In this document: piece by piece, positions 15,779 through 60,098 of the stretch
How the letters are laid out: each line of letters starts with the position of its first letter
How positions within the stretch are numbered: position 1 is the stretch's first letter
Origin: a virus
Lineage: Duplodnaviria > Caudoviricetes
Reading direction: 5' to 3' (one strand)
Virus record (IMG/VR): IMGVR_UViG_3300045110_000134
Coordinates: 1-60,237 of that record
DNA length: 60,237 nt
Program-made: the position numbers and the translations under genes
The notes under the pieces: model-generated
What the model was told of the DNA's origin: nothing
Database searches by the model: none
The model's input: only the letters and a program-made list of their open reading frames with translations

Positions 15779-15825
15779 AGACCTTCTGCCAGTTTACGTT
15801 TACGCCAACGCTGCTCTTTGGTCAT
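15643..15825 (-). CDS. Small zinc-finger protein overlapping DUF3310
   Basis: ATGA coupling to upstream GT; GLCRNCGK...LCRGC. Confidence 0.45.
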   Translation of the reverse strand: MTKEQRWRKRKLAEGLCRNCGKQKIVPSTTLCRGCKRPSTTRSTIPLTRPESSVLPLSST

Positions 15826-31369: not shown

Positions 31370-31403
31370 GGTTTCCTCTTTGGTCGCTGGTAGCGACTGG
31401 CCC

Positions 31404-31432
31404 ACCATGTCATACTAGTATGAACCTGTCAA
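31404..31432 (-). promoter_or_regulatory. Leftward promoter with palindromic operator
   Basis: Reverse TTGACA at 31427-31432; perfect 14-bp palindrome TCATACTAGTATGA at 31410-31423 in the spacer; -10 weak. Confidence 0.55.
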
Positions 31433-36539: not shown

Positions 36540-36712
36540 GAGACCCGACCACAATGACGCGGGAAGAAAGAGACGCGCTCCCGTGGGCTACCCCGGAGCA
36601 GGTGGAAGAAGTTGCTAAACTGATGATGTCATGGCGACCTGAACAGTTAGACGACCTCAAGCAGCGCATGGCCACGCTCCGCGCCGAAGGCAAATGTACT
36701 CCGAAAAAATAA
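36536..36712 (+). CDS. 58-aa hypothetical protein
   Basis: GTGA coupling; fills the gap before terL. Confidence 0.45.
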   Translation: MRDPTTMTREERDALPWATPEQVEEVAKLMMSWRPEQLDDLKQRMATLRAEGKCTPKK

Positions 36713-39257: not shown

Positions 39258-39409
39258 AAGTCCATATTGATTACGATTACGAGCAAAACAAGCCGATTGT
39301 CTGCTTAGAACCGGAAAACGAGGCGGAGACCCTGGAGCTAGAATTGGTGGCCAGTTTCGATACTGCCAGTTTCCGTATAATTTTGGACGAGGCAGAGGTC
39401 TCCTCTTGA
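39254..39409 (+). CDS. 51-aa acidic protein
   Basis: TTGA coupling at both ends. Confidence 0.4.
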   Translation: MKVHIDYDYEQNKPIVCLEPENEAETLELELVASFDTASFRIILDEAEVSS

Positions 39410-45626: not shown

Positions 45627-46631
45627 ATGTCGCTAAACTCGATGATCCAGGAAATGCTTCTGGAAGTACCGGGGATAGCCTCGTCGCAGGCGAAAATCTA
45701 TATCAACCGCGCACTCGGGCTAATCTATGACGCGCAGATGTGGTCCTGGCAGCTGCAAGAGTCCGGTTGGCTGACTCCTGGCCTGCAGTTCCCTGTTCCT
45801 GGCAGTCCGGGAAACAGCCTGGGAAGCGTCAGTGTTACGGCTTTCTCTCCCCTGGTAACTCCCAGCACTTCCGCAAAAGCAGCATGGCTCGCTTATACCG
45901 GGATGCCGCTATTCACCCAGTTCCAGTTCCGAAGTCCCTTCTACTCGCTGTACAACATCATCGCGATTAACCCCGTCACCGGGGTACTCACCCTGGATCG
46001 CCCGTGGATGGAACCGACCGACGCGAGCGCGGCTTACATGATCTACCAGGCGTACTTTCCCGTGCCCGTCCCTGATTTCAAAAGATTCCTCTCAGCGCGG
46101 GATACCACAAACAACTGGCCGATGGACTATTGGAGTTTGAGCCAGAAGGATCTTGCGGTGAAGGATGCGGAGCGGACCATCTTTGATGATCCCAACTACA
46201 TCGTTCCTTACCAGGTAGACCAGCGAACGAATAGCGCGACCTTGGGAAACATGCTGTACGAACTCTGGCCTCAACCTATGAGCCAGTTGCCCTACAGCTA
46301 CCAGTACCTACGCCGCGGGCCACTCTTGCAGGGTCCCAATGACGCGGTGCCCTACCCGCTCACAGAGGAATGCGTTTTGTGGCGGGCCAAGCAGGTTGCG
46401 TTCATGTCGAAAGAAGCGTCGAAGGGTGAGGACATGCAGCGCGGGCAGGGCGCGGACTGGAAGTTTTTGATTCAGGAAGCGGAAGACCAGTTCGTGAAGA
46501 CTCTCAAGCCGGTCAAGGACCGCGACAGTGATCTTGTGAGTTTGTACTACCAGCGTTACCGTCCGGACTTCTACAACAATGGGGAGCCGTTCGCCACAGA
46601 CACAGGACAGTTGAATATCGGGAGGTTCTAA
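45627..46631 (+). CDS. Head-to-tail adaptor/ring protein
   Basis: MSLNSMIQEML...IYINRAL..IY....WSW; YELWPQP. Confidence 0.7.
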   Translation: MSLNSMIQEMLLEVPGIASSQAKIYINRALGLIYDAQMWSWQLQESGWLTPGLQFPVPGSPGNSLGSVSVTAFSPLVTPSTSAKAAWLAYTGMPLFTQFQFRSPFYSLYNIIAINPVTGVLTLDRPWMEPTDASAAYMIYQAYFPVPVPDFKRFLSARDTTNNWPMDYWSLSQKDLAVKDAERTIFDDPNYIVPYQVDQRTNSATLGNMLYELWPQPMSQLPYSYQYLRRGPLLQGPNDAVPYPLTEECVLWRAKQVAFMSKEASKGEDMQRGQGADWKFLIQEAEDQFVKTLKPVKDRDSDLVSLYYQRYRPDFYNNGEPFATDTGQLNIGRF

Positions 46632-47057
46632 ATGTTAGCAGCGCTGCCACCAGTTCTACCGGGGATTTACCCAGGCGCCGGCCAAGCATCTTTACTGCGG
46701 GCGAACTCTCAACAATGGCTCTTTCAGCAGCAACTCATCATCGCGGGCCAGTCAAGCATCGCGGTCCAGTTGGAACGGATCAAGATGTCGTACTTCTATC
46801 CCTTCGGCTGCTCGCTGCAAATCTTCTTCACGAACATATCTCTCGCGGCCGCTGATCCCGGAGCCTTTGAAGTAGACGCGCAGACCTCCGACATCGACCG
46901 GGAGGACCAATACTGCACCACCACGGGCCTAACTGCGGTGAGTGCCAGCAATTTTGCCGGCCGGATTGAACTCCCCTGGCTGTGGGCGAAGTTCATCCGC
47001 GTGAACGTCAAGACTCTGACCAACGGGGTCTACTCGAATGTCTTGGTGACTCGATGA
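46632..47057 (+). CDS. Small beta-sandwich virion protein without signal peptide
   Basis: FEVDAQTSD...AKFIRVNV; immediately precedes the fibre cluster. Confidence 0.6.
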   Translation: MLAALPPVLPGIYPGAGQASLLRANSQQWLFQQQLIIAGQSSIAVQLERIKMSYFYPFGCSLQIFFTNISLAAADPGAFEVDAQTSDIDREDQYCTTTGLTAVSASNFAGRIELPWLWAKFIRVNVKTLTNGVYSNVLVTR

Positions 47058-48010
47058 GACGCCTACTGTTGCTCCTTCTATTGCTCGCTCCGTGCGTCCA
47101 CGCGCAAGTGGTCGGGCCGGGGTTTGTGGATTACGTGACCTCGGCGCCTTCGGGGGCGTGCTCTCAGGGCCAGCACCTACAGGTAGTGCTCGGCTCGGGG
47201 GACATCTACACCTGTCAGAGTGGCACTTGGACGAAATCTGGCGGAAGCGGGGTCGGCTCGGTCACTAGCGTCTCCTTTACTGGTGGGCTGATTTCCGTAG
47301 CAAATCCGACGACGACGCCCGCGCTCACTGTTGCGGGAACCTCTGGCGGCATCCCGTATTTTTCTGGTGCAGCGACGTGGGCATCTTCTGGCGCCTTAAC
47401 TCAGCACGCCATTGTTCTTGGTGGCGGGGCGGGCGCAACTCCAACGGTTGTAGCCAGTCTTGGAACGTCGGCCACGCTTCTCCACGGCGCGGCTGCTGGC
47501 GACCCTACATTCTCTGCAGTGAACCTGGCTACCGATGTCACTGGCCAGCTTCCTATCGCTGCGGTTGGCAGTGCCGGCCTGAGCGGAACGTCCCCAATGG
47601 CCATCGCATCAACCGGGGCCATCTCGATTAACGCGAACGGAATTACTGCCAGCCAGCTTGCGACCCAGTACGCAATCCTTCGCTGCTATCCGGGCCTGGG
47701 GGACGGGCTGAATGCAATCAGCGCCGGCACCTACCTTCAGACCAACTGCTACAACAACTCCGGAGTGACGTGGACGATTACGCGCATCGGGTGCTTCACC
47801 GACAATTCCGGCACGTCTACCCTGAATGCCACAAACGGCGCCGCAACTGCGCTGCTGACCGGCGCGGTGACCTGTACGACTGCGGCGGGCGGAGCGGCCG
47901 GAACACAGAGCGCGACTACCACGATCGCCAACGGGGATGTCATCAAGTTCACGTTTGTTGCAGATGGGACCAGCAAGCAGACGGGATGGTTTGTAAGTTT
48001 GACCCAGTGA
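47054..48010 (+). CDS. Signal-peptide-bearing fibre protein A1
   Basis: MRRLLLLLLLLAPCVHA|Q; APSGAC...IYTCQSGTW; GSVTSV shaft; C-terminal GDVIKF...GTSKQ domain. Confidence 0.75.
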   Translation: MRRLLLLLLLLAPCVHAQVVGPGFVDYVTSAPSGACSQGQHLQVVLGSGDIYTCQSGTWTKSGGSGVGSVTSVSFTGGLISVANPTTTPALTVAGTSGGIPYFSGAATWASSGALTQHAIVLGGGAGATPTVVASLGTSATLLHGAAAGDPTFSAVNLATDVTGQLPIAAVGSAGLSGTSPMAIASTGAISINANGITASQLATQYAILRCYPGLGDGLNAISAGTYLQTNCYNNSGVTWTITRIGCFTDNSGTSTLNATNGAATALLTGAVTCTTAAGGAAGTQSATTTIANGDVIKFTFVADGTSKQTGWFVSLTQ

Positions 48011-49632
48011 AAATCCTCAGACTACTTTCGCTGCTGGCGCTCCTCTCCGTCGCTGCGTGGGGACAGTTGACGACTGCTGACCAGATTCCCACTGTACGGC
48101 AGTCCATCCAAACCAACAGTTCCAACACCGCGGTTTACCCAAAGAACGTAGTCTCGGGCAACCTCCTGGTTGCCATGTTCCACACTCGCGCCAACATCAC
48201 GACTCCGACTGTGGCTGACACGCTAACCTCGACTTGGACCCTGAGAGTTACGCAGGGAACAACGAATAGCTGGCTTTACATCTGGACTGCACTGGCGAAC
48301 GGCTCCGGGGCAGACACGATCACGGTCACGCAGTCTGGCGGGACGAATACGAAAACGGCTGGTATCGAGGTTTCCAACTGCACCGAAACTGTGGACACTT
48401 CTGCCACGGCAACGACTGCGCCATCGAGCAGCCTGGTCACGTTTCCCAACATCACCACGTCAAAGTACCGGGATTTCGTACTCGACACGCTCACGGGATT
48501 TAGCGGTGTCACAAGCCCCAATATCAACGCGGCTTACACCTATGCGGTCATTAGTGGTTCAACCACGGGCGACAACATTTATATGTCGTACACGATCACT
48601 GGCGACCCTGGGACGGTGACTGGCCCCACGGTCTCGACAGGAAACAGCGTTGCCTCCGAGGGTGTGCTGGCGCTGCGCTCGACTACGAACCTGACAGTTT
48701 CGACCGCAGCTATCCCTGATGCGGTCAGTGGCACTGCTTACAGCTTTCAGATGCAGGCCACAGGCGGCGGCGGTACGAATGTTTGGACCACGACTGCGGG
48801 AAATCTTCCGTGCGGACTCTCGCTTTCATCTGCCGGGGTTATCTCGGGGACGCCGACTTGTTCCAATGGAAACACGATTACGTTCAAGGTGACTGATACC
48901 GCGGCGGCGACTGCAACCAAGAATCTCACGATTCAAGTAGCCAACTCGACTGCCACGGTAGCGCGGTTGCAGGGGCATTCCAGCACTGCCAGCAACACCA
49001 ACGTATTCGGAAGCAACGTTACCAGCGGCAGCTTAATCCTGGTCACCATTGGGCTCAAGAACAACTGGGACACAGTGACACTCACTGACAGTTTGAGTAC
49101 GGTGTACGTGGAAGTGCCGGGAGCGGTTCTCGCCAATATCGGCGCCTCGCTCAACCAGTTCGCCAAGGTGTACTGGGGATTCGCACCCAGCGGCGGAGCA
49201 GATACGGTGACCTCGCTAGGTTCTGCTGCCGCGGTGAATACTTTTCTGGCGGAAGAGTTTTCCAATGTTCAGCACATTTTCGATACGGGCGTACTCTCAC
49301 AGATAAACTCGACCGCAGGAGGCTCTCCGACCTCGGGGAACATAACCGCACCGATCGCGGAGACGCTTTTTACGGTGGGGAATCCGTCAACGGCCGGCGC
49401 GACCATCTCTGTCAATTCTCCGTTTACTGGCGGATTGAATGCGAGCGATGCCAACGTGCGTCTGCAGAGCGGTTACGAGGTTGCTGCAGCCTCGGGTACG
49501 CAATCTTCTGTTTTCACGGTGAGCAGCAACACGTCGAACGACTGGGCCGTGATGCTGATGGGGTTCCGGCCAACGACTAGCGGGACTGCTCCTGCCAGTG
49601 GCGCAGGAATCAGGCATGGGGTGACATTTTGA
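48007..49632 (+). CDS. Signal-peptide-bearing adhesin B1 (two related beta domains around a putative Ig domain)
   Basis: MKILRLLSLLALLSVAAWG|Q; NVVSGNLLV and NVTSGSLILV repeats; GNLPCGLSLSSAGVISGTPT; ends GIRHGVTF. Confidence 0.75.
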   Translation: MKILRLLSLLALLSVAAWGQLTTADQIPTVRQSIQTNSSNTAVYPKNVVSGNLLVAMFHTRANITTPTVADTLTSTWTLRVTQGTTNSWLYIWTALANGSGADTITVTQSGGTNTKTAGIEVSNCTETVDTSATATTAPSSSLVTFPNITTSKYRDFVLDTLTGFSGVTSPNINAAYTYAVISGSTTGDNIYMSYTITGDPGTVTGPTVSTGNSVASEGVLALRSTTNLTVSTAAIPDAVSGTAYSFQMQATGGGGTNVWTTTAGNLPCGLSLSSAGVISGTPTCSNGNTITFKVTDTAAATATKNLTIQVANSTATVARLQGHSSTASNTNVFGSNVTSGSLILVTIGLKNNWDTVTLTDSLSTVYVEVPGAVLANIGASLNQFAKVYWGFAPSGGADTVTSLGSAAAVNTFLAEEFSNVQHIFDTGVLSQINSTAGGSPTSGNITAPIAETLFTVGNPSTAGATISVNSPFTGGLNASDANVRLQSGYEVAAASGTQSSVFTVSSNTSNDWAVMLMGFRPTTSGTAPASGAGIRHGVTF

Positions 49633-51362
49633 TAAGAAAACTGATTTTCCTGCTCGCGCTGCTCTCGGCTCCCGCTTTCGCGCAATCTCTGGCCGGCGTG
49701 AACTACGACTGTCAAATTGGTGGACAGCAAGCCTTGACCTCGGGGCTTCCCTCGACCGCAACACAGCAGATAGGGACCACGAACGTAAACGCAGGCGCCG
49801 GGGTGCAAGCGTCCTTTCCGTCCTGCATTGTGACGGTCTATGCGACGGGGACGGTAAACAAGGCCAGCATCTTCTCCGACAACAACCCTTCACCTACGGT
49901 TTTGGTCAATCCTTTCGTAGCCAACACGGATGGCAGCTTTACTTTCTTCGTCGCGCAAGGAGCGTGCTACGACATCACCATGTCCAGCGGTACTACCCCG
50001 CTACCCTACAACCGGACACTGACTGATGTTTGCGAAGGGACGGGCTCGGGCGGCGGCGGCAGCGCGAATCTAAGCGGAACACTGAATCACATCGTAAAGT
50101 TCACTAGCCCAACTAGCGGTGGGGACTCGGAAGGAATCTCTACCGGACTGGTTCCTACTTCATGGCCTCTCGGTCTGGATCTTGTCCAGGCGCCTTTGGA
50201 GTTTGACTACACGAACTCCAGTTCCCCCGGAACCACGCAATACCTTCTGGTCAGCCTCAATGCCAGCAACCAAGCCAGAAATTCACAGCCTACTGATGCC
50301 AACAATCTTTTGGGAGTGGCAGATGCCGGCGCCGGAACCACTGGCACGGTCTCAGTCGCCGTGCTCGGAATCATTCCCTGCACGTTCGACAATACGACTG
50401 CGATAAACGACTACGTGGTACTCGGTTCGGGGTCTCAGTGTCACGATGCGGGCGCGACGGAGCCAGTTGCGGTGCAAAACGTTGCTCGCGTGCAGTCGGT
50501 CAACGCTGGCGCAGGCACAAATGCGACTATCAGGATCGGGCTGCCAGATGTAGTGGCACCGCAGACGACAGGCGGAAGCGGGACCGTCTCGCCATGCGCC
50601 ACGGTGGGAGCCATCGCGTACTACGCAGCCACGGGGAACGTGGTCAGCTGCGACCCGCTATTTACGACAGATGGGGCGGGTAACTTCAGCGCGGTGAGTG
50701 GGACGTTCTCAGGATCGAACGCCGGGTACGTCTCCTTTGGGCAAGGTACGGTCCCGACTATTTCGGTAGCGAACTCAGCCTACCTCTACGCTTCTACTGC
50801 CATCGCAACAGCCTTTGGAACAGCGCTTCCCGCTGCACCAGGGACCGCAGGACAGGTTCTAACGATTCTGGCTGCTCCAGACGCCACGCACATCACAACT
50901 TCGTGGCAAACGGCTTCTGGGCCTTCCGCGGCCAGCCTCCGGAGAGTGTGCGCCTTGGTCTTTGGGGCGGAGAATGCTTCTTCTGCTCTGGCAGATGGCG
51001 ACATCGCTCCCCAAAAAGAGCAGTGCCAAGTTCCCTACGCTGCCACGGTCAGCGAAATTGATGTGACCGCGGACGCGGGAACTCCCAACGTGGTTGTCGG
51101 TATCCGACACTGCACTGCGAGTCCGTGCGCGTCGAACTTCACTATTACGAACCTGGTTTCCGGAGCTCTGGCAACCGCAGCAGCCGGTGCGCCGGCATGT
51201 TCCAAGACGGGTGCGACGACAGGGTTTGATACCTTCACGACTTGCTCGGCTACGCTGCAAAACACTGGGATTCTGCCGGGAGATTACATCGAGACGGTTT
51301 CAGCAACGGCCGGGGGAACCGCGAAGCGCTTCTCGGTCATGGTACATTTCTCCGTCAACTGA
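49629..51362 (+). CDS. Signal-peptide-bearing fibre protein A2 with tailspike head-binding-like N-domain
   Basis: MIRKLIFLLALLSAPAFA|Q; VTVYATGT..KASIFSD...NPFVANTDGSFTFF..QG.YDI; C-terminal GDYIE...GTAKR domain. Confidence 0.75.
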   Translation: MIRKLIFLLALLSAPAFAQSLAGVNYDCQIGGQQALTSGLPSTATQQIGTTNVNAGAGVQASFPSCIVTVYATGTVNKASIFSDNNPSPTVLVNPFVANTDGSFTFFVAQGACYDITMSSGTTPLPYNRTLTDVCEGTGSGGGGSANLSGTLNHIVKFTSPTSGGDSEGISTGLVPTSWPLGLDLVQAPLEFDYTNSSSPGTTQYLLVSLNASNQARNSQPTDANNLLGVADAGAGTTGTVSVAVLGIIPCTFDNTTAINDYVVLGSGSQCHDAGATEPVAVQNVARVQSVNAGAGTNATIRIGLPDVVAPQTTGGSGTVSPCATVGAIAYYAATGNVVSCDPLFTTDGAGNFSAVSGTFSGSNAGYVSFGQGTVPTISVANSAYLYASTAIATAFGTALPAAPGTAGQVLTILAAPDATHITTSWQTASGPSAASLRRVCALVFGAENASSALADGDIAPQKEQCQVPYAATVSEIDVTADAGTPNVVVGIRHCTASPCASNFTITNLVSGALATAAAGAPACSKTGATTGFDTFTTCSATLQNTGILPGDYIETVSATAGGTAKRFSVMVHFSVN

Positions 51363-51363
51363 A

Positions 51364-52095
51364 ATGCGCAAGCTACTCTTCATTCTCGCGCTGCTGTGTT
51401 CCTCGGCCTGGGCTGTGGTGCCCGTCCGCACCTGTACGGCTTCGGGCGCGGCGCCTGGTCCGGTTACCTGCAACATCACTGTGGCGGCGCACCATCTGGT
51501 CACTACCACAATCTTTACCAGCCAAGACACCAACGTTCTCAGTTACAGCGACACGCTCGGAAATTCTTATTCTCAAAACCCTTTTACCGGATGCTACCCA
51601 GGCAGTTTCACTCCCTGCAACGCAGGTGTGGCGGCGGCGCAGTCCTACTCCATCACCTTCGCCTCGCAAAGCAGTGTCATTTTCTATATCAGCACGGGGA
51701 CATTCGCGGGCGTGGTCACATTCAGCGTCTCGGGAGGGGTGGGCACGGACAAGATTTACTCGGCAGAATACTCTCAGGACATTATCGCGCTGGACGCAGG
51801 GACACAGACCGGCACCACGATTACCACGACCGGGGCGAACGATTTGATTGTTGTGATGACGGGCGATTCGGGGGTGACAACCTGCAGCGCGATTACGCCG
51901 GCTGCGGGGTTCACTCTGGAATTTAGCCAGAACGCATCCTGCAAAAGCTACTCTGATCGAATCAACCTTCCTCCGGGAAGCTACTCTTACAAGACAACCC
52001 TAACCGGCAACGCGGTTCCTGGTTGGACTGCGGTTGCCTTCGGTGTGGCGCCGTTCGTTTCTAGCGCAGTACGCCATGCAAGGAACATCTATTGA
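51364..52095 (+). CDS. Signal-peptide-bearing adhesin B2
   Basis: MRKLLFILALLCSSAWA|V; SDTLGNSY and ITTTGANDLIV resemble B1 domains; ends AVRHARNIY. Confidence 0.75.
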   Translation: MRKLLFILALLCSSAWAVVPVRTCTASGAAPGPVTCNITVAAHHLVTTTIFTSQDTNVLSYSDTLGNSYSQNPFTGCYPGSFTPCNAGVAAAQSYSITFASQSSVIFYISTGTFAGVVTFSVSGGVGTDKIYSAEYSQDIIALDAGTQTGTTITTTGANDLIVVMTGDSGVTTCSAITPAAGFTLEFSQNASCKSYSDRINLPPGSYSYKTTLTGNAVPGWTAVAFGVAPFVSSAVRHARNIY

Positions 52096-55000
52096 TTCAA
52101 CGCGCCATTCTCGCGGCAGCGCTGCTGGCCAGTCCTCTTTCTGCCCAGTTGTTTGTCTCACCCACTGGATCAAGCACGTCTAACTGCACTTCGGCTGCTC
52201 CCTGCACGATCGCCCGCGCAGATGTCGTGGCAACTCCGGGGGTGACCATCAATGTAGCTCCCGGAAATTACACGGGCGGGATTGTAACGCACACTGCAGG
52301 CACGGCAAACTCGCGCATCGTGTGGCTTTCAACTACCAAGTGGGGAGCGAAGTTAGTAGGAGTGGGTTCGCAGTTTGGCGTGTGGGCTGTTTGGGGCTCG
52401 TTCGTTGACATCAACGGCTTTGACATGACCACGAACGGTTCGTTTGGGACTTGCCTGGGAATCATCGGCCTTCAGCAGACGCCTTCCCCGGCTGTGGGCG
52501 TACACATCATCGGAAATAATTGCCACGACATCGAGAACAACCCAGCAACCAGCGGCACCTGCGTTCCCACGGGCGCATTCAGTGACGGGACGGGTGGGAG
52601 CGACGACTGGTTTATCGGAAACGTAATCCGGCATGCTGGATGGCCAGACCCCACTACGGGCAGTCATTGCATCGACGTTCACGGCATCTACACAACCGGG
52701 GTTCGGCAAGTCCTGGAAAACAACGTTATCTCGGGTGTCTCCGGTTGGGGCATCCAAATGCGTAACTCCGGTGACCTCACGAGCGGTTACTGCTGCAACG
52801 TCATTTCCGGAAACACGATTTTCAACAACAACGGTGGGATTGTAATTGACGAAACCGGCAACACGGCTCGGGCTGTGCTCGACTTTGTGACCATGAGCAA
52901 CAACGTAGTCGTGAACAACGGTCCAGGGTCCGGGCTAGGTGGATCGGGTACGTGGGGGGTCAACTACTTTCACTTGACCGGGAAAAATTGGGTAGTCAAC
53001 AACAACCTGATTTACGGCAACAAGGGTCCAGGAGGGATCGCTGGGGACCAGGCGCATCACGGTCAGCTTTGCGGCCAGAACGCAAGCGGTGGCACCCCGG
53101 TAGTTGGCGTTGCTATCACTGGCACTGACGGAAATGGTGATGCTGGAGGATGTCCGCAGAATCTCCCAAGAACGGATAGTGGCGGGGCGACGGCAACCTT
53201 TATAAACTTCCAGACCGATACCAACACTGCGCCAGCGGCAAGTTATGACGTAAACAACTACAAACTGAACGGAAGTACGCCAACCCGTGCGATTCAGGGC
53301 GGCGCTAGTCCAACCAGTTGCGCTATCCCCCCTGGCCTTACTCCTTGCGCTCCGCCTGTAGACTTCGCAGGGACGGTGCGGACCCTTCCATACGACATTG
53401 GGGCCTGGGCATTCACTTCTGGCGGAGTCCCGATTGTCAACTTCAGTCCTTCCCCGCTCAATTTCGGAACGATACCTGTAAGTACATCGCAGGCTCTCAC
53501 GGCCACGTTGGCCAACACGGGTGCCGCGGTACTAAACATCACCGCATCGACCATCGCCGGGACGAACCAGGCGGATTACAAGATCACCAGCAAGACGTGC
53601 GGAGCGACTCTTGGCGCGGGCTCAAACTGCACGTTCCTCATCACATTTACGCCTTCGGCTGCCGGGGTACGTTCTGCGAGTCTGACGCTGACCACGAATG
53701 CAGCCGGCTCTCCACAGCAGTTGCCCTTAACAGGCACGGGAGGGACTGTAGGGGTAACTTTCAATCCGACATCTCTAACGTTTGGCGTGACTGCTCCCGG
53801 CAGTTGCAGTGCAAACCAGACCTACACCGTGAGCAGCACGGGAACGACAGCACTGGCCTTAAACGGAGCAACCTTCACTGGGGCGAACTCGGGGGAGTTT
53901 GCTTTTGGTGGCACGGGGACGTGCAATCAGCCGGGTTCGGTTCCACCGGGCGGATCTTGCACTATCAGCATCAAGTTCTGTCCAGCAAGCGGAGGTAGTA
54001 AGTCGGCCACGGTCTCCCAAAGTACGAATGCTCCCGGCTCGCCACAACTCGAACCGCTCTCAGGTACAGGTGGCACGTCAACGGCTACGCTTCTTCCGGC
54101 AACGTTTGCTTACGGGAATGTGCAGGTAGGGACCAGCCTCTCGCACAACTTTGTTTTCACCAACACGGGAACACTCACCCTTACCGGAATTTCCGTTTCA
54201 ATCACGGGCGCGACGGGTTCCTACACGCAAACCAACAACTGTCCTGCGAGTCTGGCGCCTGCCGGAAACTGTACGATCGCGGCGGTATTCAAGCCTGCAA
54301 CGGGCGGGCTGCTGAATGCTTCACTAAACGTTGCATCGAGCGCAGTTCCTTCTCCGACAACCGCGGCCTTGAGTGGCACGGGCACAGTGCCAGCAACCAT
54401 CTCGCTCTCGCCGGCGAGTGTTCCCTTTGTGGACACCCTGGTGGGGAATTTCTCTGCTGTGACGAATGTGGTGGCGACCAACACGGGCGCTTCGACGGTG
54501 AACATCTCCGGAGTGTCGGTCGTCGGCACCAATCCGGGAGACTTTACGGCTGGCGAGTGCGCGTCTACATTCACCGGCTTTACCGACAACTTCAACACCG
54601 GAACCCTAAGTTCTAGCTGGCAGAAGGATTCAGGGACAGCCCCGCAAAATGGCGCCACAAACGTTGCCTCATTCTCGACGGCCAACGTAGATCTCACAAA
54701 CGGAATGCTTGGGCTGAAATTGACGCAGAGCATCGTAGGTGGCGTGGCTACTTCAGTGGGCGCGGAGGTTCGCTCAACTACTGCATTCGGCTTCGGAACC
54801 TACAGGTGGTCAACCCGGATGGGGTCTACTGCGACCTCGCCACTTACTACCGGGACGGTTCCCACGGGGCAAGTGTCATCGAACTTCATTCTGAATAGCT
54901 CGACGGCTAACCCATATACCGAAATAGACTCTCCGGAGGTTACAGGGAACCAGCCCAACCTGGCGCAGTGGACAACCTGGACGACGACCAGTCTTAACAC

Positions 55001-58000
55001 TTCCACATCCACTGCGATTGCTAACCCGGAACTAGCGTTCCATCTTTACCAGTTCAAGTGGACTGCTTCCTCGGCGGCGTTCTCGATTGATGGAACGCCG
55101 GCTTCCACGATCACCACGAATATCCCTACCGCCAACGGCAACCCTATGATGAATTTGTGGGGAACGAACAACGCAGGATTCGGTGGTGCGGCTACGGTAG
55201 GGACACGGTGGATGTTTGTAAAGGCGTTCTCTTTCTCGCCGGCAGGGGTCTCAAGTCTGGCGCCTGGTGCATCCTGCGCGATTCCGGTTTATTTCAGCCC
55301 GCAATCCACGGGAACCAAATCAGCCATTCTTTCGGTAGCGGACAGTGCATCGGGGAGCCCGCACCAGGCCTCCTTGAGCGGCAACGGAACCGCTGCGAGT
55401 CCCAGCCTCTCTCCCACGAGCCATGACTACGGGAACCAGCCCGTAGGGTCCGCGACGACTCCATTTAACTTCCAGTGGTCAAATACCGGCACCGGCCCGA
55501 TGCCCTGGTCGGTTTCCCTGACGGGCGCGAACCCTGCAGACTTCATTCTTGGGGCAAACAGCATTCCGAATCCGCTTCCCGCAGGACAGAGCGGACTTCT
55601 CCCGGTGTCCTTCAAGCCGACGACCTCCGGAGCTCGCGCCGCCACCTTAAATCTCGCCACGGGAGCGGGTGGCGCTGCGACCGCGGGACCATGCAACCTG
55701 AATGCGACGACTGCGACGTTCGCGGCCCAGTTAGCGGCAGCGACTCCTGGACAGGTGCTCTGCTTGGCGACTGGGAATTACGGTTCGTTCGCTGGTGTTG
55801 CCAAGGCGAGCCCAGGCGTGACCATTGCCGCACAATCTGGCGCAACTCCGACGATGTTCATTGCGATTCACCAACTTGTCCCCGTTGCTGCCTTTCTAAC
55901 ATTCGACGGGATTACCTTCAGCGGTGGGGATCTGTCTGGGCCGGCGCATGACCTAACCTTCCGAAACAGCCGCTTTAGCGACAAACTGAACGTCTACGCA
56001 GGGGCCAACAACAACGCTTGCTCTAACTGTCCCGCGATGAACAACAACAACATCGTGTTCGATAACGACCTGTTCGATATGTCGGCAAACCAGAGCGGCG
56101 CAGGAGGATTTGAAGGACGATTCAACATCCTTGGCAACACTCTGCCTGCTGGCGTGACCGTCAGAAATTCTAAATTCACGACGGGTTGTGCGGACGGCAT
56201 CCAGTCGGTCGGTGGTGGTGGTAATGGCTACACGATTGGTCCGGGGAACGAATTCTTCAATCTCAAGCAAGGAAGCTGCGGACCACACGTAGACTCGATT
56301 CAATTCGTTGGAAGTTCATCCCCAGGCCCGGTCATTACTGGTAATTATTTCCACGATGATTCGGATGGCATCGTCGCCTTCGATAACGCGAATTCTGCCA
56401 CGATCACCAGCAACGTGATTGCGAACGTGGATCAGTTCGCAATCCTGCTCGCGGGCTTCGATAGTGTGTCTGTGGTATCGAACAACACGGTTCCAAACGG
56501 GGACATCTTCTGCGGATACACGCATCAAGGCAATGCCTGTCAAGCGCAGATTAGAAACAACATTACGGGAGACTTCAATCAAGGCGGGACTACGATTGCG
56601 GGGTCTACCGGCACAAACCCGAGTTTCTTCGACTACAACCTTTGCACGTCTAGTTGCGCTATCCCTGGCGCGTTGCCTACTCCGATTTCAGCAGGCGCTC
56701 ACAGTCTGAGCGGCACCGCCACATTCGTAGGAGGAGCGAGCCCGACCACGTATGCCGGGTATCTACTGACCTCTGGGTCAATCGGACACAACGCCGGCAG
56801 CGACGGCAAGGATATGGGGATTGCACCGAATCAAGGTGGAACCCTGAGTACAGCCAGTTTGACGGGTACGGGAGTAGTCACGGCGCCGGCCGTCTGTCTG
56901 AGCACGACCAGCGTTGATTTTGGAAATCAGCCTGTCAATTCAACTTCTAATGCCACGCCGATTGTGGTAACCAACTGCGGTACGGCTGCTTTGACGAGCG
57001 TGGTAGTTACTCCCACGGGAAACTTTACCCAGACAAATGACTTCAGTGTGAGCGTAGCGGTTGGGGGACATTTCACGATTCAGGGCAAGTTTGCTCCTCT
57101 GTCCGCGGGCGCCCTAACTGGGAACTTCTCGATCGCGTCGAACGCGGCGTCGAGTCCGAATGTAGTAAGCCTGAAAGGATTCGGGACACAGAGCGGGGCT
57201 ACGATCAGTCCAGGGTCAATCTCTTTTGGTCACATCACAGTAGGACAGCAATCTTCACCGACGCAGGTAACGGTCACCAACACCAGCAATATCACGCTCC
57301 CTGTCAGTGCGACGACGATTACTGGGACGGGTGCTACGCAGTTCGTCTCGGGCAGTTGTCCTGCAAATCTCGCTGCAGGCGGGTCCTGCCAGTATTCGGT
57401 TGTCTTCGCGCCACAGGGAGCACTCGCGTTCACGGCAACACTCAATCAGGCTTTCGGGAATGGAGTTGCAACCCAGACCATACCCTTGAGCGGGACTGGG
57501 GACGCTCCGGTTCCAACGCTCTCGCTTACGCCATCATCCCTGGATTACGGGAATGTCCAGCAGGGCACTCCGTCACAGGTGAAGACGATCACCCTACTAA
57601 ACACAAGCCTAACGTCGCTCACCCTCACGTCCGTGCTTCCGACCGGCGCGAATGCGGCCGACGTAGCGGTAACGAGTCACTGCGGCGCGACTCCGGTGAC
57701 GATCGCAGCCGGCACGCAATGTACGGTGGACGTAACGGTGACTCCCAGCACCACGTCCGCGGAGACCGCAGCGGTGACGTTCACATCGAATGCAGCCAGT
57801 AGTCCGGACAGTGTAGGTATCACAGTGACAGGTACAGCGGTCCCTGTCCCGCGGGTGCTCTTGAGTCCTTCAAGCCTTTCATTCTCTCCGCCAAGCATTC
57901 AAACAACGACCGTTTCGGCGGCGCAGGATGTGGTGGCCAACAATATCGGGAACGCGAACCTGCTGGTATCGAATGTGGCTCTCGCGGGGGCGAACCAGGC

Positions 58001-58613
58001 CGACTTTAGCTTGACCACAAACTGCGGGACGGTAACTCCGGGGAGCAACTGCAAGGCGACGGTGAATTGCACTCCCTTGCTGGGTCACATCGGATCACTC
58101 ACGGCCTCGGTGGTCTTCACTGACAACGCAGCCGGCAGCCCTCGCAGTGCTGCACTGACTTGTACAGCGTTCGATGGCCAGCCAATCATCACGCTCGGCA
58201 TCTCAAAGATTGATTTTGGGAATCAGACGGTTGGGACAACCAGCAACCCGCTGACATTCATCGTCTCCAATACGGGACAGGCCACAGCTTCAGGGCTGGC
58301 TATCACGACCTCGGGAGACTTTGCGGTAAGCGGAGCATGTGGGGCAACGCTGGCAGCCGGCGCGAACTGCTCCGAACAGGTAACCTTCACTCCACTGATT
58401 CTTTGTGGCCAGTTCGATCCAAACAATCCGGCGACCTGCATCAGCAACGTGCATCTCGGGCAGATTTCCGTGGTCTCGAACACGTCGAACAGTCCGCAGA
58501 TAATCACGCTGCAAGGTACAGCGGTTCCAGTTCCGCCTCCACCTGGGCCAGTGAAAGTCACAATGGGCGGCGTCCTGCACTTAGGTGGTCATCTTGTAGC
58601 GGGGGTTCAATAA
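52092..58613 (+). CDS. Giant exported adhesin/depolymerase: two beta-helices, GH16-like domain, many choice-of-anchor-D Ig repeats
   Basis: MIQRAILAAALLASPLSA|Q; FVSPTGS...APC.TI..A; repeated SP.SL.FG...TNTG...C...L..G..C...F.P; EIDSPE motif at 54921-54938. Confidence 0.85.
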   Translation: MIQRAILAAALLASPLSAQLFVSPTGSSTSNCTSAAPCTIARADVVATPGVTINVAPGNYTGGIVTHTAGTANSRIVWLSTTKWGAKLVGVGSQFGVWAVWGSFVDINGFDMTTNGSFGTCLGIIGLQQTPSPAVGVHIIGNNCHDIENNPATSGTCVPTGAFSDGTGGSDDWFIGNVIRHAGWPDPTTGSHCIDVHGIYTTGVRQVLENNVISGVSGWGIQMRNSGDLTSGYCCNVISGNTIFNNNGGIVIDETGNTARAVLDFVTMSNNVVVNNGPGSGLGGSGTWGVNYFHLTGKNWVVNNNLIYGNKGPGGIAGDQAHHGQLCGQNASGGTPVVGVAITGTDGNGDAGGCPQNLPRTDSGGATATFINFQTDTNTAPAASYDVNNYKLNGSTPTRAIQGGASPTSCAIPPGLTPCAPPVDFAGTVRTLPYDIGAWAFTSGGVPIVNFSPSPLNFGTIPVSTSQALTATLANTGAAVLNITASTIAGTNQADYKITSKTCGATLGAGSNCTFLITFTPSAAGVRSASLTLTTNAAGSPQQLPLTGTGGTVGVTFNPTSLTFGVTAPGSCSANQTYTVSSTGTTALALNGATFTGANSGEFAFGGTGTCNQPGSVPPGGSCTISIKFCPASGGSKSATVSQSTNAPGSPQLEPLSGTGGTSTATLLPATFAYGNVQVGTSLSHNFVFTNTGTLTLTGISVSITGATGSYTQTNNCPASLAPAGNCTIAAVFKPATGGLLNASLNVASSAVPSPTTAALSGTGTVPATISLSPASVPFVDTLVGNFSAVTNVVATNTGASTVNISGVSVVGTNPGDFTAGECASTFTGFTDNFNTGTLSSSWQKDSGTAPQNGATNVASFSTANVDLTNGMLGLKLTQSIVGGVATSVGAEVRSTTAFGFGTYRWSTRMGSTATSPLTTGTVPTGQVSSNFILNSSTANPYTEIDSPEVTGNQPNLAQWTTWTTTSLNTSTSTAIANPELAFHLYQFKWTASSAAFSIDGTPASTITTNIPTANGNPMMNLWGTNNAGFGGAATVGTRWMFVKAFSFSPAGVSSLAPGASCAIPVYFSPQSTGTKSAILSVADSASGSPHQASLSGNGTAASPSLSPTSHDYGNQPVGSATTPFNFQWSNTGTGPMPWSVSLTGANPADFILGANSIPNPLPAGQSGLLPVSFKPTTSGARAATLNLATGAGGAATAGPCNLNATTATFAAQLAAATPGQVLCLATGNYGSFAGVAKASPGVTIAAQSGATPTMFIAIHQLVPVAAFLTFDGITFSGGDLSGPAHDLTFRNSRFSDKLNVYAGANNNACSNCPAMNNNNIVFDNDLFDMSANQSGAGGFEGRFNILGNTLPAGVTVRNSKFTTGCADGIQSVGGGGNGYTIGPGNEFFNLKQGSCGPHVDSIQFVGSSSPGPVITGNYFHDDSDGIVAFDNANSATITSNVIANVDQFAILLAGFDSVSVVSNNTVPNGDIFCGYTHQGNACQAQIRNNITGDFNQGGTTIAGSTGTNPSFFDYNLCTSSCAIPGALPTPISAGAHSLSGTATFVGGASPTTYAGYLLTSGSIGHNAGSDGKDMGIAPNQGGTLSTASLTGTGVVTAPAVCLSTTSVDFGNQPVNSTSNATPIVVTNCGTAALTSVVVTPTGNFTQTNDFSVSVAVGGHFTIQGKFAPLSAGALTGNFSIASNAASSPNVVSLKGFGTQSGATISPGSISFGHITVGQQSSPTQVTVTNTSNITLPVSATTITGTGATQFVSGSCPANLAAGGSCQYSVVFAPQGALAFTATLNQAFGNGVATQTIPLSGTGDAPVPTLSLTPSSLDYGNVQQGTPSQVKTITLLNTSLTSLTLTSVLPTGANAADVAVTSHCGATPVTIAAGTQCTVDVTVTPSTTSAETAAVTFTSNAASSPDSVGITVTGTAVPVPRVLLSPSSLSFSPPSIQTTTVSAAQDVVANNIGNANLLVSNVALAGANQADFSLTTNCGTVTPGSNCKATVNCTPLLGHIGSLTASVVFTDNAAGSPRSAALTCTAFDGQPIITLGISKIDFGNQTVGTTSNPLTFIVSNTGQATASGLAITTSGDFAVSGACGATLAAGANCSEQVTFTPLILCGQFDPNNPATCISNVHLGQISVVSNTSNSPQIITLQGTAVPVPPPPGPVKVTMGGVLHLGGHLVAGVQ

Positions 58614-59110
58614 TGGACATCAAGGTTGGGGCGCTATGGCTGAATCCAACGTTTTTACTGTTCTGCATGTTCTACCTCGGAGTGTTCCTGCGCTTCTTCG
58701 TGCGCTCAGTAAAGGCTGTACGCAGTCCCTTACGTAGTTACCCTACCCGCTTCTCCTTTTTCAAAACCAACTGGGACATCTTTTTAATCCGGACTGTGCT
58801 GTTCAATACACCTTTGTTTGTGTTGTGGCTTTATCATCCTGACCTGGCGGTAAAGGGCCTGCTGTGGATGCATGTCCCGGAGGGGATTGCGACGTGGGTG
58901 ATTGTTCCGCCGACCATCCTTTCGGCCGGTGGATTCGGGACGGTCGTAGACCTGGCGATTGACCAGGTACAAATCAGGATCGCCACGAACCCGCCTACGT
59001 GGTTACCTGACCAGCTGAAGGGAGAAATTCCTTCCTACGATGCCAGCGCGGTTGACATCAGCAAGATGGCGGATAAACGTGTAGAAGCACCCCAAAAAGG
59101 AGACGACTAA
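58613..59110 (+). CDS. Multi-pass membrane protein (lysis cassette)
   Basis: TAATG coupling at 58613; several hydrophobic segments. Confidence 0.65.
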   Translation: MDIKVGALWLNPTFLLFCMFYLGVFLRFFVRSVKAVRSPLRSYPTRFSFFKTNWDIFLIRTVLFNTPLFVLWLYHPDLAVKGLLWMHVPEGIATWVIVPPTILSAGGFGTVVDLAIDQVQIRIATNPPTWLPDQLKGEIPSYDASAVDISKMADKRVEAPQKGDD

Positions 59111-59338
59111 ATGATCTACCTACTGGCTGATTCTCTCGGAGCGTTCAACTTCTTCCACTTTATTTTTGGGTTCATTCTTGTTTGTTGCGCTATTGCCATC
59201 GTCATCATCCTGGTGAAATGGCTGGCGGGGCTGGCAGGGGTAACAATTCCTCCTCCCCTCATGCTGGTTGGAGGCATCTTAATGTTCGTGCTCCTGCTCA
59301 TGCTTTTATTGAATTACTCAGGTTTACGCATTTGGTAG
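59111..59338 (+). CDS. Two-TM holin-like protein
   Basis: AGGAG RBS; two long hydrophobic helices split by IPPP. Confidence 0.6.
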   Translation: MIYLLADSLGAFNFFHFIFGFILVCCAIAIVIILVKWLAGLAGVTIPPPLMLVGGILMFVLLLMLLLNYSGLRIW

Positions 59339-59359
59339 TCTGGAAAAGAGGATTTTGAT

Positions 59360-59587
59360 GTGGTGGAAGTATCTAACGGGGAGTTTAACGAGTGGTTACG
59401 TCTTGCAATTGCTGGGCTCGCTGTTATTGCTTGGTATCTGTTTAGACGTGCTGTGGCACAACTGGATGAGGACCAAAAGGAGACGGCGAGAGAAGTTACA
59501 AAACTTAGAGATCTTGTCATGCAACTACTTACCCGAGATCGACTCCGCCGTCTTGCAGACTACGAGAGAGACGAGCGGGACCAATAA
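59360..59587 (+). CDS. One-TM plus coiled-coil protein (holin/antiholin-like)
   Basis: WLRLAIAGLAVIAWYLFRR followed by a charged coil; directly before the endolysin. Confidence 0.6.
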   Translation: MVEVSNGEFNEWLRLAIAGLAVIAWYLFRRAVAQLDEDQKETAREVTKLRDLVMQLLTRDRLRRLADYERDERDQ

Positions 59588-59609
59588 GAAAGGGCTCCTG
59601 CACTAGAAA

Positions 59610-60098
59610 ATGGACGCTATTTCGGAGGCAAGGCTGCGAGAAGTTCATCCCCAACTCGCAAGAAAGATAAGACAAATGGCCGACGTTGTTGCTCTCGATC
59701 GGCCTCCTGTAACTCTGCGGGTGACGCAGGGACTCCGGACTTGGATGGAGCAAGAACGGCTTTTCGCCCAAGGCCGCAGCGCACCTGGAAAAATAGTGAC
59801 CAATGCCGAACCTGGGCATAGCTGGCATCAATTCGGGCTTGCAGTTGACGTAGTTCCACTCGGTCTTGACGGTCAGCCTGACTGGAATACAGAACATCCC
59901 ATATGGCGGCGGCTAGTTGCCGTTGGGACTGGCCTAGGGCTTGTAGAAGGCGCCCAATTTCGTTCATTTCCGGACTACCCCCATTTCCAGTTAACGGGTA
60001 AACTCCCTGTGTCCCCTGATATTGAAGTTAGAGAGTCATTCGGTCAATCAGGTATCCAAGGTATCTGGAAAGAAACTGGTTTGGAGGAGAGCGCATGA
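59610..60098 (+). CDS. Endolysin, M15 family (L-Ala-D-Glu peptidase-like)
   Basis: VTQGLRT..EQ..LFAQGR..PG.IVTNA..G.SWHQFGLAVD...DYPHFQ. Confidence 0.92.
   Translation: MDAISEARLREVHPQLARKIRQMADVVALDRPPVTLRVTQGLRTWMEQERLFAQGRSAPGKIVTNAEPGHSWHQFGLAVDVVPLGLDGQPDWNTEHPIWRRLVAVGTGLGLVEGAQFRSFPDYPHFQLTGKLPVSPDIEVRESFGQSGIQGIWKETGLEESA

Follow-up and report, generated by a model that had tools for sequence, protein, structure and literature searches.

Five consecutive tail genes of the soil phage analysed here carry export signals, which suggests that their products exit the cytoplasm and join the virion only around lysis. The window, that is, the whole stretch of 60,237 nucleotides that was analysed (IMG/VR record IMGVR_UViG_3300045110_000134), is a complete podovirus genome of ~60.1 kb with a 127-bp terminal overlap and a unit genome of 60,110 bp, in which no tRNAs were found. 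The source phage is lytic and tailed and has an HK97-type capsid, and its head and tail proteins are without leaders. The five genes, named here by their first positions, are predicted to encode a tailspike whose head-binding domain is of the classical type (49629), three fibre/adhesin proteins of smaller size (47054, 48007, and 51364), and a 2173-aa protein (52092). For the proposal that they constitute a receptor-binding appendage module with cleavable Sec/signal-peptidase-I leaders that is exported and docks around lysis, we consider the chances evenly balanced. By textbook, tailed-phage assembly is wholly cytoplasmic; to our knowledge, no well-studied tailed phage has tail proteins that join the virion from outside the cytoplasm around lysis, and we know of no precedent in tailed phages for assembly after compartment mixing. 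In the open-access and bioRxiv literature, supplements aside, we found no published account of a tailed phage whose tail fibres bear Sec leaders.

Leaders and gene order in the fibre module

Leaders were called with our own n/h/c rule (not SignalP), scanning every in-frame start of greedy ORFs of at least 70 aa. The rule flags 5/5 genes of the module vs. 1/63 other ORFs, in agreement with the original prediction that all five carry Sec-type leaders. The sole other flagged ORF owes its call to an internal TTG in a 125-aa ORF and was judged spurious, and by the same rule no credible gene elsewhere in the genome opens with a comparable leader. All five genes lie on the plus strand, and the leaders comprise residues 1-17 of fibre protein A (318 aa; 47054..48010; predicted site VHA|Q), residues 1-19 of fibre/adhesin protein B (541 aa; 48007..49632; AWG|Q), residues 1-18 of tailspike-like protein C (577 aa; 49629..51362; AFA|Q), residues 1-17 of small fibre-module protein D (243 aa; 51364..52095; AWA|V), and residues 1-18 of giant protein E (2173 aa; 52092..58613; LSA|Q). 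Each has the basic n-region (R or K within the first 2-5 residues, 5/5 genes), hydrophobic core, and AxA-like site that had been claimed; the h-region cores are 12-13 residues long, with best 12-residue Kyte-Doolittle means of 2.2-3.1, the type I criterion being an uncharged segment that spans about 7-15 residues and falls short of a TM anchor in length. Scans with the generally known motif patterns found no lipobox and no Tat motif (S/T-RR-x-F-L-K-like) in the five proteins. Also as predicted, the five proteins contain no second hydrophobic segment of TM strength past the leader and are rich in Ser, Thr, and Gly (S+T+G = 34-41%). The results support the view that the predicted leaders are real, canonical, and, by the n/h/c rule, conserved in homologues.

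The corrected starts that had been proposed were recovered in every case: 47054 is an ATG that overlaps the stop of 46632-47057 (ATGA), 48007 is a GTG that overlaps the stop at 48010, 49629 is a TTG that overlaps the stop at 49632, 51364 is an ATG 1 nt past the stop at 51362, and 52092 is a TTG that overlaps the stop at 52095. A leader also results if 48007 is started at the ATG that lies seven codons farther upstream (47986); its start is thus ambiguous, its leader is not. The block makes up 19.2% of the 60,110-bp unit genome (~19% had been estimated) and occupies the expected fibre position, between the 45627 tail protein plus 46632 and the lysis genes (58619-60098).

Upstream of the module, 45627..46631 (+) encodes a conserved 334-aa tail protein, a homologue of Tunturi_1 gp11 'tail protein', and 46632..47057 (+) encodes a conserved 141-aa protein that has no leader and precedes leader-bearing genes in most related contigs. 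Two further leaderless proteins are a 438-aa protein with a Pfam SU10_adaptor domain (719..2035, +) and, after it, a 953-aa protein conserved with Tunturi_1 gp31 (2549-5410). The look-alikes of 45627 found by a language model are SU10-adaptor clusters (a lead only), and this hint is unconfirmed, because hhalign of the 334-aa family vs. the 438-aa family returned a probability of 0.1%. Searches of the PDB gave chance antibody matches only for 45627 and chance matches only for profiles A5 and A6; genome contigs scanned with the 334-aa protein yielded no prophage relative. Pfam and PHROGs gave no match for 47054, 49629, and 51364, nor for most other virion genes, and fibre- or spike-like family matches are absent from all genes of the genome outside the five-gene block. 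A complex prediction for the 334-aa and 438-aa proteins with the mature 49629 N-domain, for which controls were not run, scored 0.00 and gives no verdict.

Leaders, predicted cleavage sites, and cysteines in related phages

A survey of related phages, a comparison suggested alongside the original prediction, shows that leaders recur in the same gene slot across 26 related viral contigs. Leaders are present in 36/48 fibre-slot ORFs of at least 200 aa vs. 16/283 other ORFs of these contigs (Fisher p=2e-25), and the trait is kept by position although the proteins themselves differ. Among relatives of 49629, 37/49 have a leader. The head-binding-domain family comprises >6,000 protein clusters at 50% identity; in the best 146 of these, 117/146 representatives have a leader by the strict rule and most of the remainder by eye, that is, nearly all of the 146 examined. 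When 133 family members were aligned on a conserved Cys, with no cleavage rule applied, positions -22..-15 formed an L-rich core, A/S/P occupied -14..-11, and the Ala at -10 and -8, which stand at -3 and -1 of the predicted site, preceded N/Q.

The only cultured relatives among 50,697 phage records are Tunturi_1 and Tunturi_2 (PP887698, PP885685), which have the same gene order, a gp12 with the same N-domain, and leaders on gp12, gp13, gp14, gp16, and gp17, but core proteins only about 27-28% identical to those of the window phage. The rule flags 8/105 annotated CDS of Tunturi_1, namely these five contiguous fibre genes, two lipobox proteins, and a single TM protein. In Tunturi_3, an unrelated podovirus of the same host strain, 0/28 structural-module CDS have a leader; the trait is therefore not a host artefact. 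The terms 'signal peptide' and 'mass spectrometry' are absent from the main text of the paper describing the Tunturi phages (PMC11924767), which reports no proteomics. The leader is a clade-wide trait, on our reading a lineage trait of Tunturi-1-like podoviruses of Acidobacteriota (Terriglobia). A phage sugar-modification cluster, considered as a clade trait tied to the leaders, was rejected, its DegT gene being present in only 1/5 related genomes.

With sites curated by eye, Gln occupies the predicted +1 position in 4/5 window genes and 37/41 clade genes; in a 400-kb sample of a Tunturiibacter chromosome, a noisy rule places Gln there in 11/52 leader-like ORFs, vs. a Gln background of 4.8%. 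PMC5837995 describes a 'Q-rule' (+1 Gln, pyroglutamate) as Bacteroidetes-specific, and 'Q-rule' genes of Porphyromonas gingivalis phages, according to PMC10367356, likewise expose +1 Gln. A plant-type glutaminyl cyclase (PF05096) was not found in one Tunturiibacter genome. At +1 to +3 past the predicted cleavage site, 4/5 window genes have GTG or TTG, and 11/41 clade genes have a start-like codon vs. 13.5% of control windows (p=0.017). A general dual-start isoform design is unsupported, because these 11 cases are a minority of the 41 genes and most of them share one homologous 'QVV' N-terminus.

The mature proteins of 47054, 48007, 49629, 51364, and 52092 contain 6, 3, 14, 6, and 46 Cys, so that the paired Cys claimed for all five hold for four only, 48007 having three. 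Cys enrichment tracks the leader, a correlation that the data support: Cys accounts for 1.5-2.7% of residues, mostly in even numbers, in leader-bearing fibres vs. 0-0.85% in the leaderless Tunturi_3 fibres of similar composition, a 3-10 times excess in the same host. All 117 of the 146 representatives that pass the rule have both conserved Cys, and one or both are missing in four representatives in which the domain starts at residue 3-6, as well as in leaderless L010 and L022. By our count, six head-binding-domain variants are truly leaderless (L010, L022, P0104, P0108, P0163, and P0183), and L033 is a counter-example, with a leader and without the Cys pair. The leaderless, Cys-less variants may go back to only two or three lineages, which leaves few independent events behind the co-variation. 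The argument is weakened by the 47054 C-terminal domain, in which all four Cys are kept in 18/18 relatives that start with Met and are not flagged by the leader rule, some dozen of which look truly leaderless to the eye; Cys-rich distal domains can thus evidently be made without a leader.

Domain organisation of the module proteins

In the 577-aa protein of 49629, the head-binding (particle-binding) domain, assigned by profile and fold (49695..50030, +), ends near residue 135; a Gly linker then leads to a beta domain in the middle of the chain and to a jelly-roll knob at the C-terminus (436-577); in the model, a low-confidence extension after the leader contains Cys28. The resemblance of its N-domain to podovirus tailspike head-binding domains, noted in the original prediction, proved to include profile homology: N-domain profile A4 matches the Pan3 'Tail spike protein' N-terminus with E=3.4e-7 and 2.8e-6 and the Pam1 'Tailspike head-binding domain' with E=0.0074. 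Fold comparison gives Z of 8.9/8.8 to Pan3/Pam1 and 6.5-7.1 to P22/Sf6 over 73-83 residues, a range that the tool's own note calls middling, for a stretch with model pLDDT of 60-86. These domain-level matches came from a second-look comparison and not from Foldseek, which found nothing at E<=0.001 in the PDB with the 577-aa model; phmmer with full-length 49629 vs. PDB sequences found no match.

Residues of about 59-141 of 49629 thus match Pan3 (9vyg/9vyh) and Pam1 (7eeq) by profile and fold, and, at these middling scores, may share the fold of P22 gp9 and Sf6 gp14. As in podovirus spikes, the domain is N-terminal and variable distal parts follow; unlike in those spikes, it is preceded by a Sec-type leader of 18 residues and an extension of roughly 40 residues with a conserved Cys, whose partner Cys lies in the first strand. 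In Pan3, the matched stretch starts at chain residue 19-20, leaving no room for a leader. The spikes of P22 and Sf6 are made and attached in the cytoplasm. Within the fibre module, no other piece is as well conserved across the clade as the head-binding domain; N, middle, and C parts are reshuffled between the 49 relatives, and the domain is joined to differing distal parts in 16 contig genes. This homology argues that the module consists of virion receptor-binding proteins and not of cargo.

In 47054, the mature protein opens with a small module with two Cys (QVVGPG...) that is also present in other contigs, and the C-terminal domain (about residues 200-318) is common to >100 other fibre-like proteins. 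The 48007 protein has a He_PIG Ig-like domain at residues 230-311; the 51364 protein has six Cys and no family match. The 52092 protein has a beta-helix-type N-terminus directly after the leader, HYDIN/ASH Ig-like repeats, a second Beta_helix at 1354-1507, and a conserved C-terminal tail (PPPPGPVKVTMGG...GVQ). Pfam GH16 (PF00722) matches residues 861-1023 with 49.3 bits vs. a cut-off of 22, and the protein's single ExDxxE, which we take to be the GH16 catalytic motif, lies inside this domain at residues 944-949. With its Ig, GH16, and beta-helix parts, the protein has the look of an enzyme that hydrolyses polysaccharides; an N-terminal anchor domain was not recognised in it.

Proposed assembly route and alternative explanations

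From the sequence, we infer export, cleavage, disulphide formation, and the time and place of docking as follows. Each of the five proteins would be made as a pre-protein with a cleavable Sec/signal-peptidase-I leader; late in infection, the pre-proteins would cross the inner membrane and be cleaved at AxA|Q. Folding and oxidation of the mature proteins would take place in the periplasm; in the cytoplasm, heads and tails would meanwhile be assembled without fibres. Holin-type proteins would then permeabilise the inner membrane, the leaderless endolysin would act, and periplasm and cytoplasm would mix inside the still-confined cell. The head-binding domain of 49629 would serve to dock the spikes on the tail, the remaining proteins would attach to 49629 or to the tail itself, and a plausible pay-off would be that a periplasmic or surface enzyme strips receptor polysaccharide off the dying cell. 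The lysis block (58619..60098, +) encodes four proteins: one with three TM segments (58619-59110, +), one with two (59111-59338, +), one that combines an N-terminal TM segment with a charged helix (59360-59587, +), and an M15/VanY endolysin that has no leader (59610-60098, +); we count its holin-like TM proteins and leaderless endolysin in favour of this route. That a large soil-phage lineage sends all its receptor-binding appendages through host Sec and attaches spikes outside the cytoplasm at holin/lysis mixing is a generalisation we advance tentatively, its chances falling just short of even.

It seems hardly credible that the leaders are chance hydrophobic N-termini or products of wrong start codons. 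Although 3/5 genes start with GTG or TTG and the ORFs can be extended farther upstream, the enrichment of leaders in the fibre slot, here and in relatives, speaks against an artefact, as do public independent gene calls and the deposited Tunturi_1 annotation, which begin the homologues at the leader. Assembly could instead be cytoplasmic as usual, with the leader inefficient, retained, or otherwise used, either through dual localisation (only a fraction being exported, with a cytoplasmic precursor pool entering virions and the exported pool acting on the cell envelope) or through a hydrophobic N-terminus that tethers the proteins at the membrane until lysis. We regard this as unlikely. Sister phages with leaderless head-binding domains indicate that docking needs no export in itself, apparently leaderless fibres also have the conserved-Cys distal domains, and GTG or TTG follows the predicted site in 4/5 window genes; against this stand the restriction of start-like codons to a minority of clade genes, mostly with the 'QVV' N-terminus, the Cys content that follows the leader, and the Ala at -3 and -1 and Gln at +1 kept at a fixed distance from the domain, a conserved c-region hard to explain unless the site is cut.

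A different possibility is that the five proteins are exported non-virion enzymes or adhesins that remodel the infected-cell surface or matrix, serving release, exclusion of other phages, or community effects, with the true receptor-binding proteins elsewhere. The 2173-aa protein, whose beta-helix begins where the leader ends and whose set of domains is that of glycanases secreted by bacteria, fits such a role, 47054, 48007, and 51364 have no demonstrated anchor domain, and the authors of PMC10367356 read leader-bearing genes of P. gingivalis phages as host-surface modifiers. This explanation is decidedly unlikely in view of the bona fide tailspike head-binding domain of 49629, the absence of fibre- or spike-like family matches from the rest of the genome, the position of the genes within the structural operon with overlapping stop and start codons, the domain shuffling with leaderless tail fibres that is typical of receptor-binding proteins, and the leaderless version in L010 directly after an adaptor-like gene. 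Taken protein by protein, cell-surface decoration is less likely for 49629 and possible for the other four.

The proposed export and late docking can be set beside other viral uses of host membranes. Ff pIII and pVIII and spike proteins of membrane-containing viruses have signal peptides and are routed through host membrane machinery, but filamentous virions assemble at or in the membrane and are extruded, whereas the window phage is lytic and tailed. Acidianus two-tailed virus has a morphogenetic step outside the cytoplasm (extracellular tail growth); it is archaeal and non-Caudoviricetes and is not known to use Sec leaders on fibres. Lambda Lom/Bor, T5 Llp, and Sec/SAR endolysins use host Sec, as do the products of the P. 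gingivalis phage genes; all of these are small proteins that are non-structural or act in lysis, whereas here a whole receptor-binding module, 19% of the genome, is concerned.

If true, the proposed route would be the first assembly pathway of a tailed phage to be split between compartments and would provide a periplasmic pool of receptor-destroying enzyme before release. If the leaders work, part of the virion would be matured by host export, signal-peptidase, and disulphide machinery, assembly would gain a new checkpoint and would newly depend on the host's Sec, LepB, and Dsb; there would be a new explanation for Cys-rich fibres of soil phages that resemble bacterial adhesins, and annotation pipelines that discard leader-bearing genes as 'not structural' would warrant caution. 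The hosts belong to Acidobacteriota, an abundant, little-studied soil phylum, and the trait is directly testable because Tunturi_1, Tunturi_2, and their host are in culture. In engineering, receptor-binding proteins might accordingly be provided in trans from the periplasm.

Leaders on the fibre genes of the phage and its relatives

The original prediction held that five consecutive fibre genes, with starts corrected to 47054, 48007, 49629, 51364 and 52092, all encode Sec/signal-peptidase-I-type signal peptides (leaders), and the results confirm this observation. The proposed starts are present as claimed, in ATGA, GTGA or TTGA overlaps or behind a 1-nt gap. A home-made leader rule, requiring net positive charge ahead of nine uncharged residues whose hydropathy averages at least 2.0, followed by small residues at −3/−1, flags 5 of 5 fibre genes and 1 of 63 other greedy ORFs of at least 70 aa for which every in-frame start was tried, the single flagged non-fibre ORF being an internal TTG within a 125-aa ORF. 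The leaders are 17–19 residues long, with cores of 12–13 residues, and the alternative ATG seven codons upstream of 48007 still yields a leader. A motif search shows no lipobox in any of the five leaders, a search for Tat motifs in the five found none, and no segment of membrane-anchor strength lies downstream of the leader in any of the five proteins. The mature proteins are 34–41% Ser+Thr+Gly, as rich in these residues as had been suggested, with only 4–8% charged residues, and the fibre block takes up 19.2% of the genome, matching the earlier estimate. The accompanying claim of paired Cys in every protein stands for four of them (6, 14, 6 and 46 Cys in mature 47054, 49629, 51364 and 52092) but fails for 48007, which has an odd number, 3.

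The leaders are also conserved in related phages, where the original prediction had proposed to look for them. In 26 related viral contigs, retrieved with the 334-aa protein (45627–46631) encoded just upstream of the fibre genes, we defined the fibre slot as the large ORFs between the 334-aa gene and the adaptor (719–2035) and 953-aa (2549–5410) genes. Leaders are found in 36 of 48 fibre-slot ORFs of at least 200 aa vs. 16 of 283 other ORFs of at least 110 aa when both sets are scanned liberally from any start (Fisher p=2e-25); the 36 is a lower bound, since an earlier form of the rule had picked up some of the 12 misses. Among 49 relatives retrieved with 49629, the rule detects a leader in 37 (in two cases after an internal Met), 3 have one by eye, 4 are 5'-truncated gene calls and 5 are ambiguous. 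In the deposited annotation of the cultured phage Tunturi_1, 8 of 105 tested CDS are flagged (one origin-crossing CDS left out): five are contiguous (gp12, gp13, gp14, gp16 and gp17) and occupy the same slot as the window genes, and the others comprise a pair of lipobox proteins and a TM protein. Tunturi_3, an unrelated podovirus of the same host strain, has a leader on 0 of 28 structural-module CDS, indicating that the trait is a property of the phage lineage, not of the host, and that the rule is not prone to false calls on fibre proteins. The main text of the Tunturi phage paper does not contain the terms 'signal peptide', 'mass spectrometry' or 'SDS-PAGE', and proteomics is listed there as future work (PMC11924767).

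The Tunturi_1 lipobox proteins, gp78 (annotated 'tail protein') and gp43, are encoded among early genes (loci L037, record 53744–54946, − strand, and L028 39529–39912) and have lipoprotein-type signals with a lipobox Cys; they are candidates for a role as surface or exclusion lipoproteins, not as components of the tail.

A tailspike head-binding domain behind the leader

The original remark that the mature N-terminal domain (N-domain) of 49629 resembles podovirus tailspike head-binding domains is settled by sequence-profile matches. Built from 17 sequences covering the mature N-domain, a profile scores E=3.4e-7 and 2.8e-6 against the 'Tail spike protein' of cyanopodophage Pan3; with Pam1, the match is to the chain named 'Tailspike head-binding domain', at E=0.0074. 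On the strength of these matches, we conclude that 49629 is very probably a tailspike-type virion protein. The matched stretch in Pan3 begins at chain residue 19–20, too close to the N-terminus for a leader to fit, whereas in 49629 a leader stands ahead of the domain. An AlphaFold2 model of 49629 (39-row alignment, mean pLDDT 68) comprises a helical leader, a low-confidence stretch at 15–63, a beta domain to ~135 and a confident C-terminal jelly roll. Foldseek returned no match to the model at E<=0.001; VIA comparison of residues 59–141 gave Z values, middling when taken alone, of 8.9 with the Pan3 tail-complex chain (rmsd 3.1, 74 residues), 8.8 with Pam1, 6.5–7.1 with the P22 tailspike N-terminal domain and 6.7 with Sf6 gp14N.

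Of all pieces of the fibre module, the N-domain is the one conserved most widely in related contigs, and it is joined to differing distal parts in 16 genes, Tunturi_1 gp12 among them; across the 49 relatives of 49629 (320–1009 aa), N-terminal (1–145), middle (150–430) and C-terminal (436–577) parts are shuffled. The C-terminal knob of 49629 resembles fibre-tip and XepA/YomS-type jelly rolls (Z 7.5–8.5), and the C-terminal domain of 47054 is common to >100 fibre-like proteins with varied N-termini. The 2173-aa product of 52092 has, by its predicted domains, the make-up of a depolymerase-type spike, with two beta-helix regions, Ig-like repeats and a GH16 domain in which the ExDxxE motif is intact; a search for an anchor domain in this protein found none recognisable. 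Its C-terminus (58545–58613) is a poly-Pro stretch followed by the tail GP[VI]KVTMGG..[LI]GG..V.GVQ, which is kept in the relative P0318 (1549 aa; otherwise 43% identical, in the N-part), is absent from all other fetched loci and proteins, and could be an attachment or sorting tag.

Within the N-domain family, leader and conserved Cys tend to go together. An N-domain profile without any leader residues, run against 1.84 billion representatives, matched 6,183 proteins at E<=0.001, of which 2,723 pass E<=1e-10. Four of the best 150 of the 6,183 were already known to bear leaders; among the other 146, 117 pass the leader rule, all with both conserved Cys, and 25 fail it with both Cys present; by eye, in most of these the called start is wrong and precedes a complete leader, or the call begins inside the leader. 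In the remaining 4 the domain begins at residue 3–6, and one or both Cys are missing in all (VA, VA, SA, AC). Loss of one or both Cys also marks two leaderless contig genes with the head-binding domain, L010:14406–15968 (both lost; directly after an adaptor-like gene) and L022:11424–14219 (first lost). Together with the four family proteins just described (P0104, P0108, P0163 and P0183), they probably stand for no more than two or three lineages. The converse fails, contig L033 having a leader and no Cys pair. When 133 members are aligned on the conserved Cys, with no cleavage rule, L/I/V/F occupy −22 to −15, A/S/P −14 to −11 and Ala −10 and −8, followed by N/Q, a profile that reads as the usual signal-peptidase-I layout, with constant spacing to the domain.

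Residues around the predicted cleavage site and the proposed route of assembly

The residue at +1 is Gln in four of the five window genes (+1 codons 47105, 48064, 49683 and 52146) and in 37 of 41 clade genes (loci L001–L028), a count that is partly circular because clade cleavage sites were curated by eye. In a 400-kb sample taken evenly from a Tunturiibacter gelidiferens chromosome, +1 Gln occurs in 11 of 52 leader-like ORFs vs. a 4.8% Gln background, so that the phage leaders look like the host's own. This habit resembles the 'Q-rule', here outside Bacteroidetes; that rule has been described as Bacteroidetes-specific (PMC5837995). The PF05096 cyclase was not found in the Tunturiibacter genome examined.

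Leader-bearing fibres (47054, 49629, 51364 and 52092; Tunturi_1 gp12, 13, 14 and 17) contain 1.5–2.7% Cys, and 8 of 10 mature leader-bearing proteins have even Cys counts; the leaderless fibres of Tunturi_3, of the same low-charge, Ser/Thr/Gly-rich composition, contain 0–0.85%. The four Cys of the 47054 C-terminal domain persist in 75 of 77 relatives with a leader and also in 18 of 18 Met-initiated relatives failing the rule, about a dozen of which look truly leaderless by eye. A leader is therefore evidently not needed to produce a Cys-rich distal domain, and the originally proposed disulphide argument is not general.

The best supported of the readings, at about even odds, is that the whole receptor-binding module is Sec-exported, cut, periplasmically folded and then added to cytoplasm-built particles. 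The module would leave the cytoplasm via Sec, its leaders would be cut at AxA|Q and its proteins would fold in the periplasm; particles would be built in the cytoplasm, and spikes and fibres would be added once holin-type proteins open the inner membrane, the same opening that would let the leaderless endolysin through. P22 tailspikes can join finished heads in vitro, which makes late docking biochemically plausible. Assembly in the cytoplasm, with a leader that is inefficient, retained or dual-purpose, we hold to be a good deal less probable. In one version of this reading, an internal start would give a leaderless isoform. Four window genes have GTG or TTG within +1 to +3 of the predicted site (at +1 to +2: 47108, 48067, 51415–51420 and 52149), but across the clade start-like codons occur there in only 11 of 41 genes, compared with 13.5% of control windows (p=0.017), the majority of the 11 sharing one homologous N-terminus. 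A dual-start leaderless isoform is thus rejected as a general design.

That the five proteins are secreted cargo and not virion parts is more doubtful still, being unlikely for 49629, with its tailspike-type domain, and possible for the other four; that the leaders are an artefact is scarcely credible. Known leader-bearing phage genes encode accessory or lysis proteins, and leader-bearing virion proteins are known from filamentous and membrane-containing viruses. Sec leaders on tailed-phage tail fibres are not described in the full texts covered by our literature search. Tailspikes and fibres with head-binding domains are a known kind, here bearing export signals across the whole module; should export and late docking hold true, the route of assembly would itself be new.

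Genome, relatives and host

The 60,237-base window opens and closes with the same 127 bases, and the record is classed as a virus contig with direct terminal repeats, indicating one complete phage genome of ~60.1 kb. It has ~57% GC, and a tRNA search of the genome found none. Encoded proteins include a large terminase (36694–38832; PHROG matches), a 697-aa protein matching the Tunturi_1 portal region (39406–41499), an HK97-type major head protein (43108–44430; phrog_9953) and a 438-aa protein with a Pfam SU10_adaptor domain (719–2035); the lysis block (58619–60098) encodes a 3-TM protein, a 2-TM protein and the leaderless M15/VanY endolysin. The 334-aa protein is adaptor-like by a language-model atlas only, and its family shows no detectable homology to the 438-aa family (hhalign probability 0.1%). 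A RecT-family recombinase and a DUF932 protein (18366–19457 and 30515–31408, − strand) are ordinary phage genes of the early/middle region.

Of 50,697 phage records, only those of Tunturi_1 and Tunturi_2 belong to cultured relatives. Both are podoviruses that infect Tunturiibacter psychrotolerans (Acidobacteriota) and have the gene order of the window; their counterparts of the head protein and of the 334-aa tail protein are ~27–28% identical to those of the window. Given these relatives and the shared gene order, the host is most likely a member of the Terriglobia, in agreement with chromosomal fibre N-domain homologues in Granulicella, Tunturiibacter gelidiferens and a Terriglobales MAG. An N-domain of the Acidobacteria-phage type is also encoded on L034 and L035, contigs binned as 'Candidatus Saccharibacteria' MAGs, which may be mis-binned phage contigs.

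A sugar-modification cluster on the − strand (12449–17734) comprises a GT2 (12449–13135), a DegT/DnrJ aminotransferase (13311–14375), a short-chain dehydrogenase (14372–15163), a GT-like protein (15822–16715) and a GT1 (16544–17734), and may serve host surface polysaccharide modification or protein glycosylation. The DegT gene is present in one of five related genomes, and the cluster is thus not tied to the leaders.
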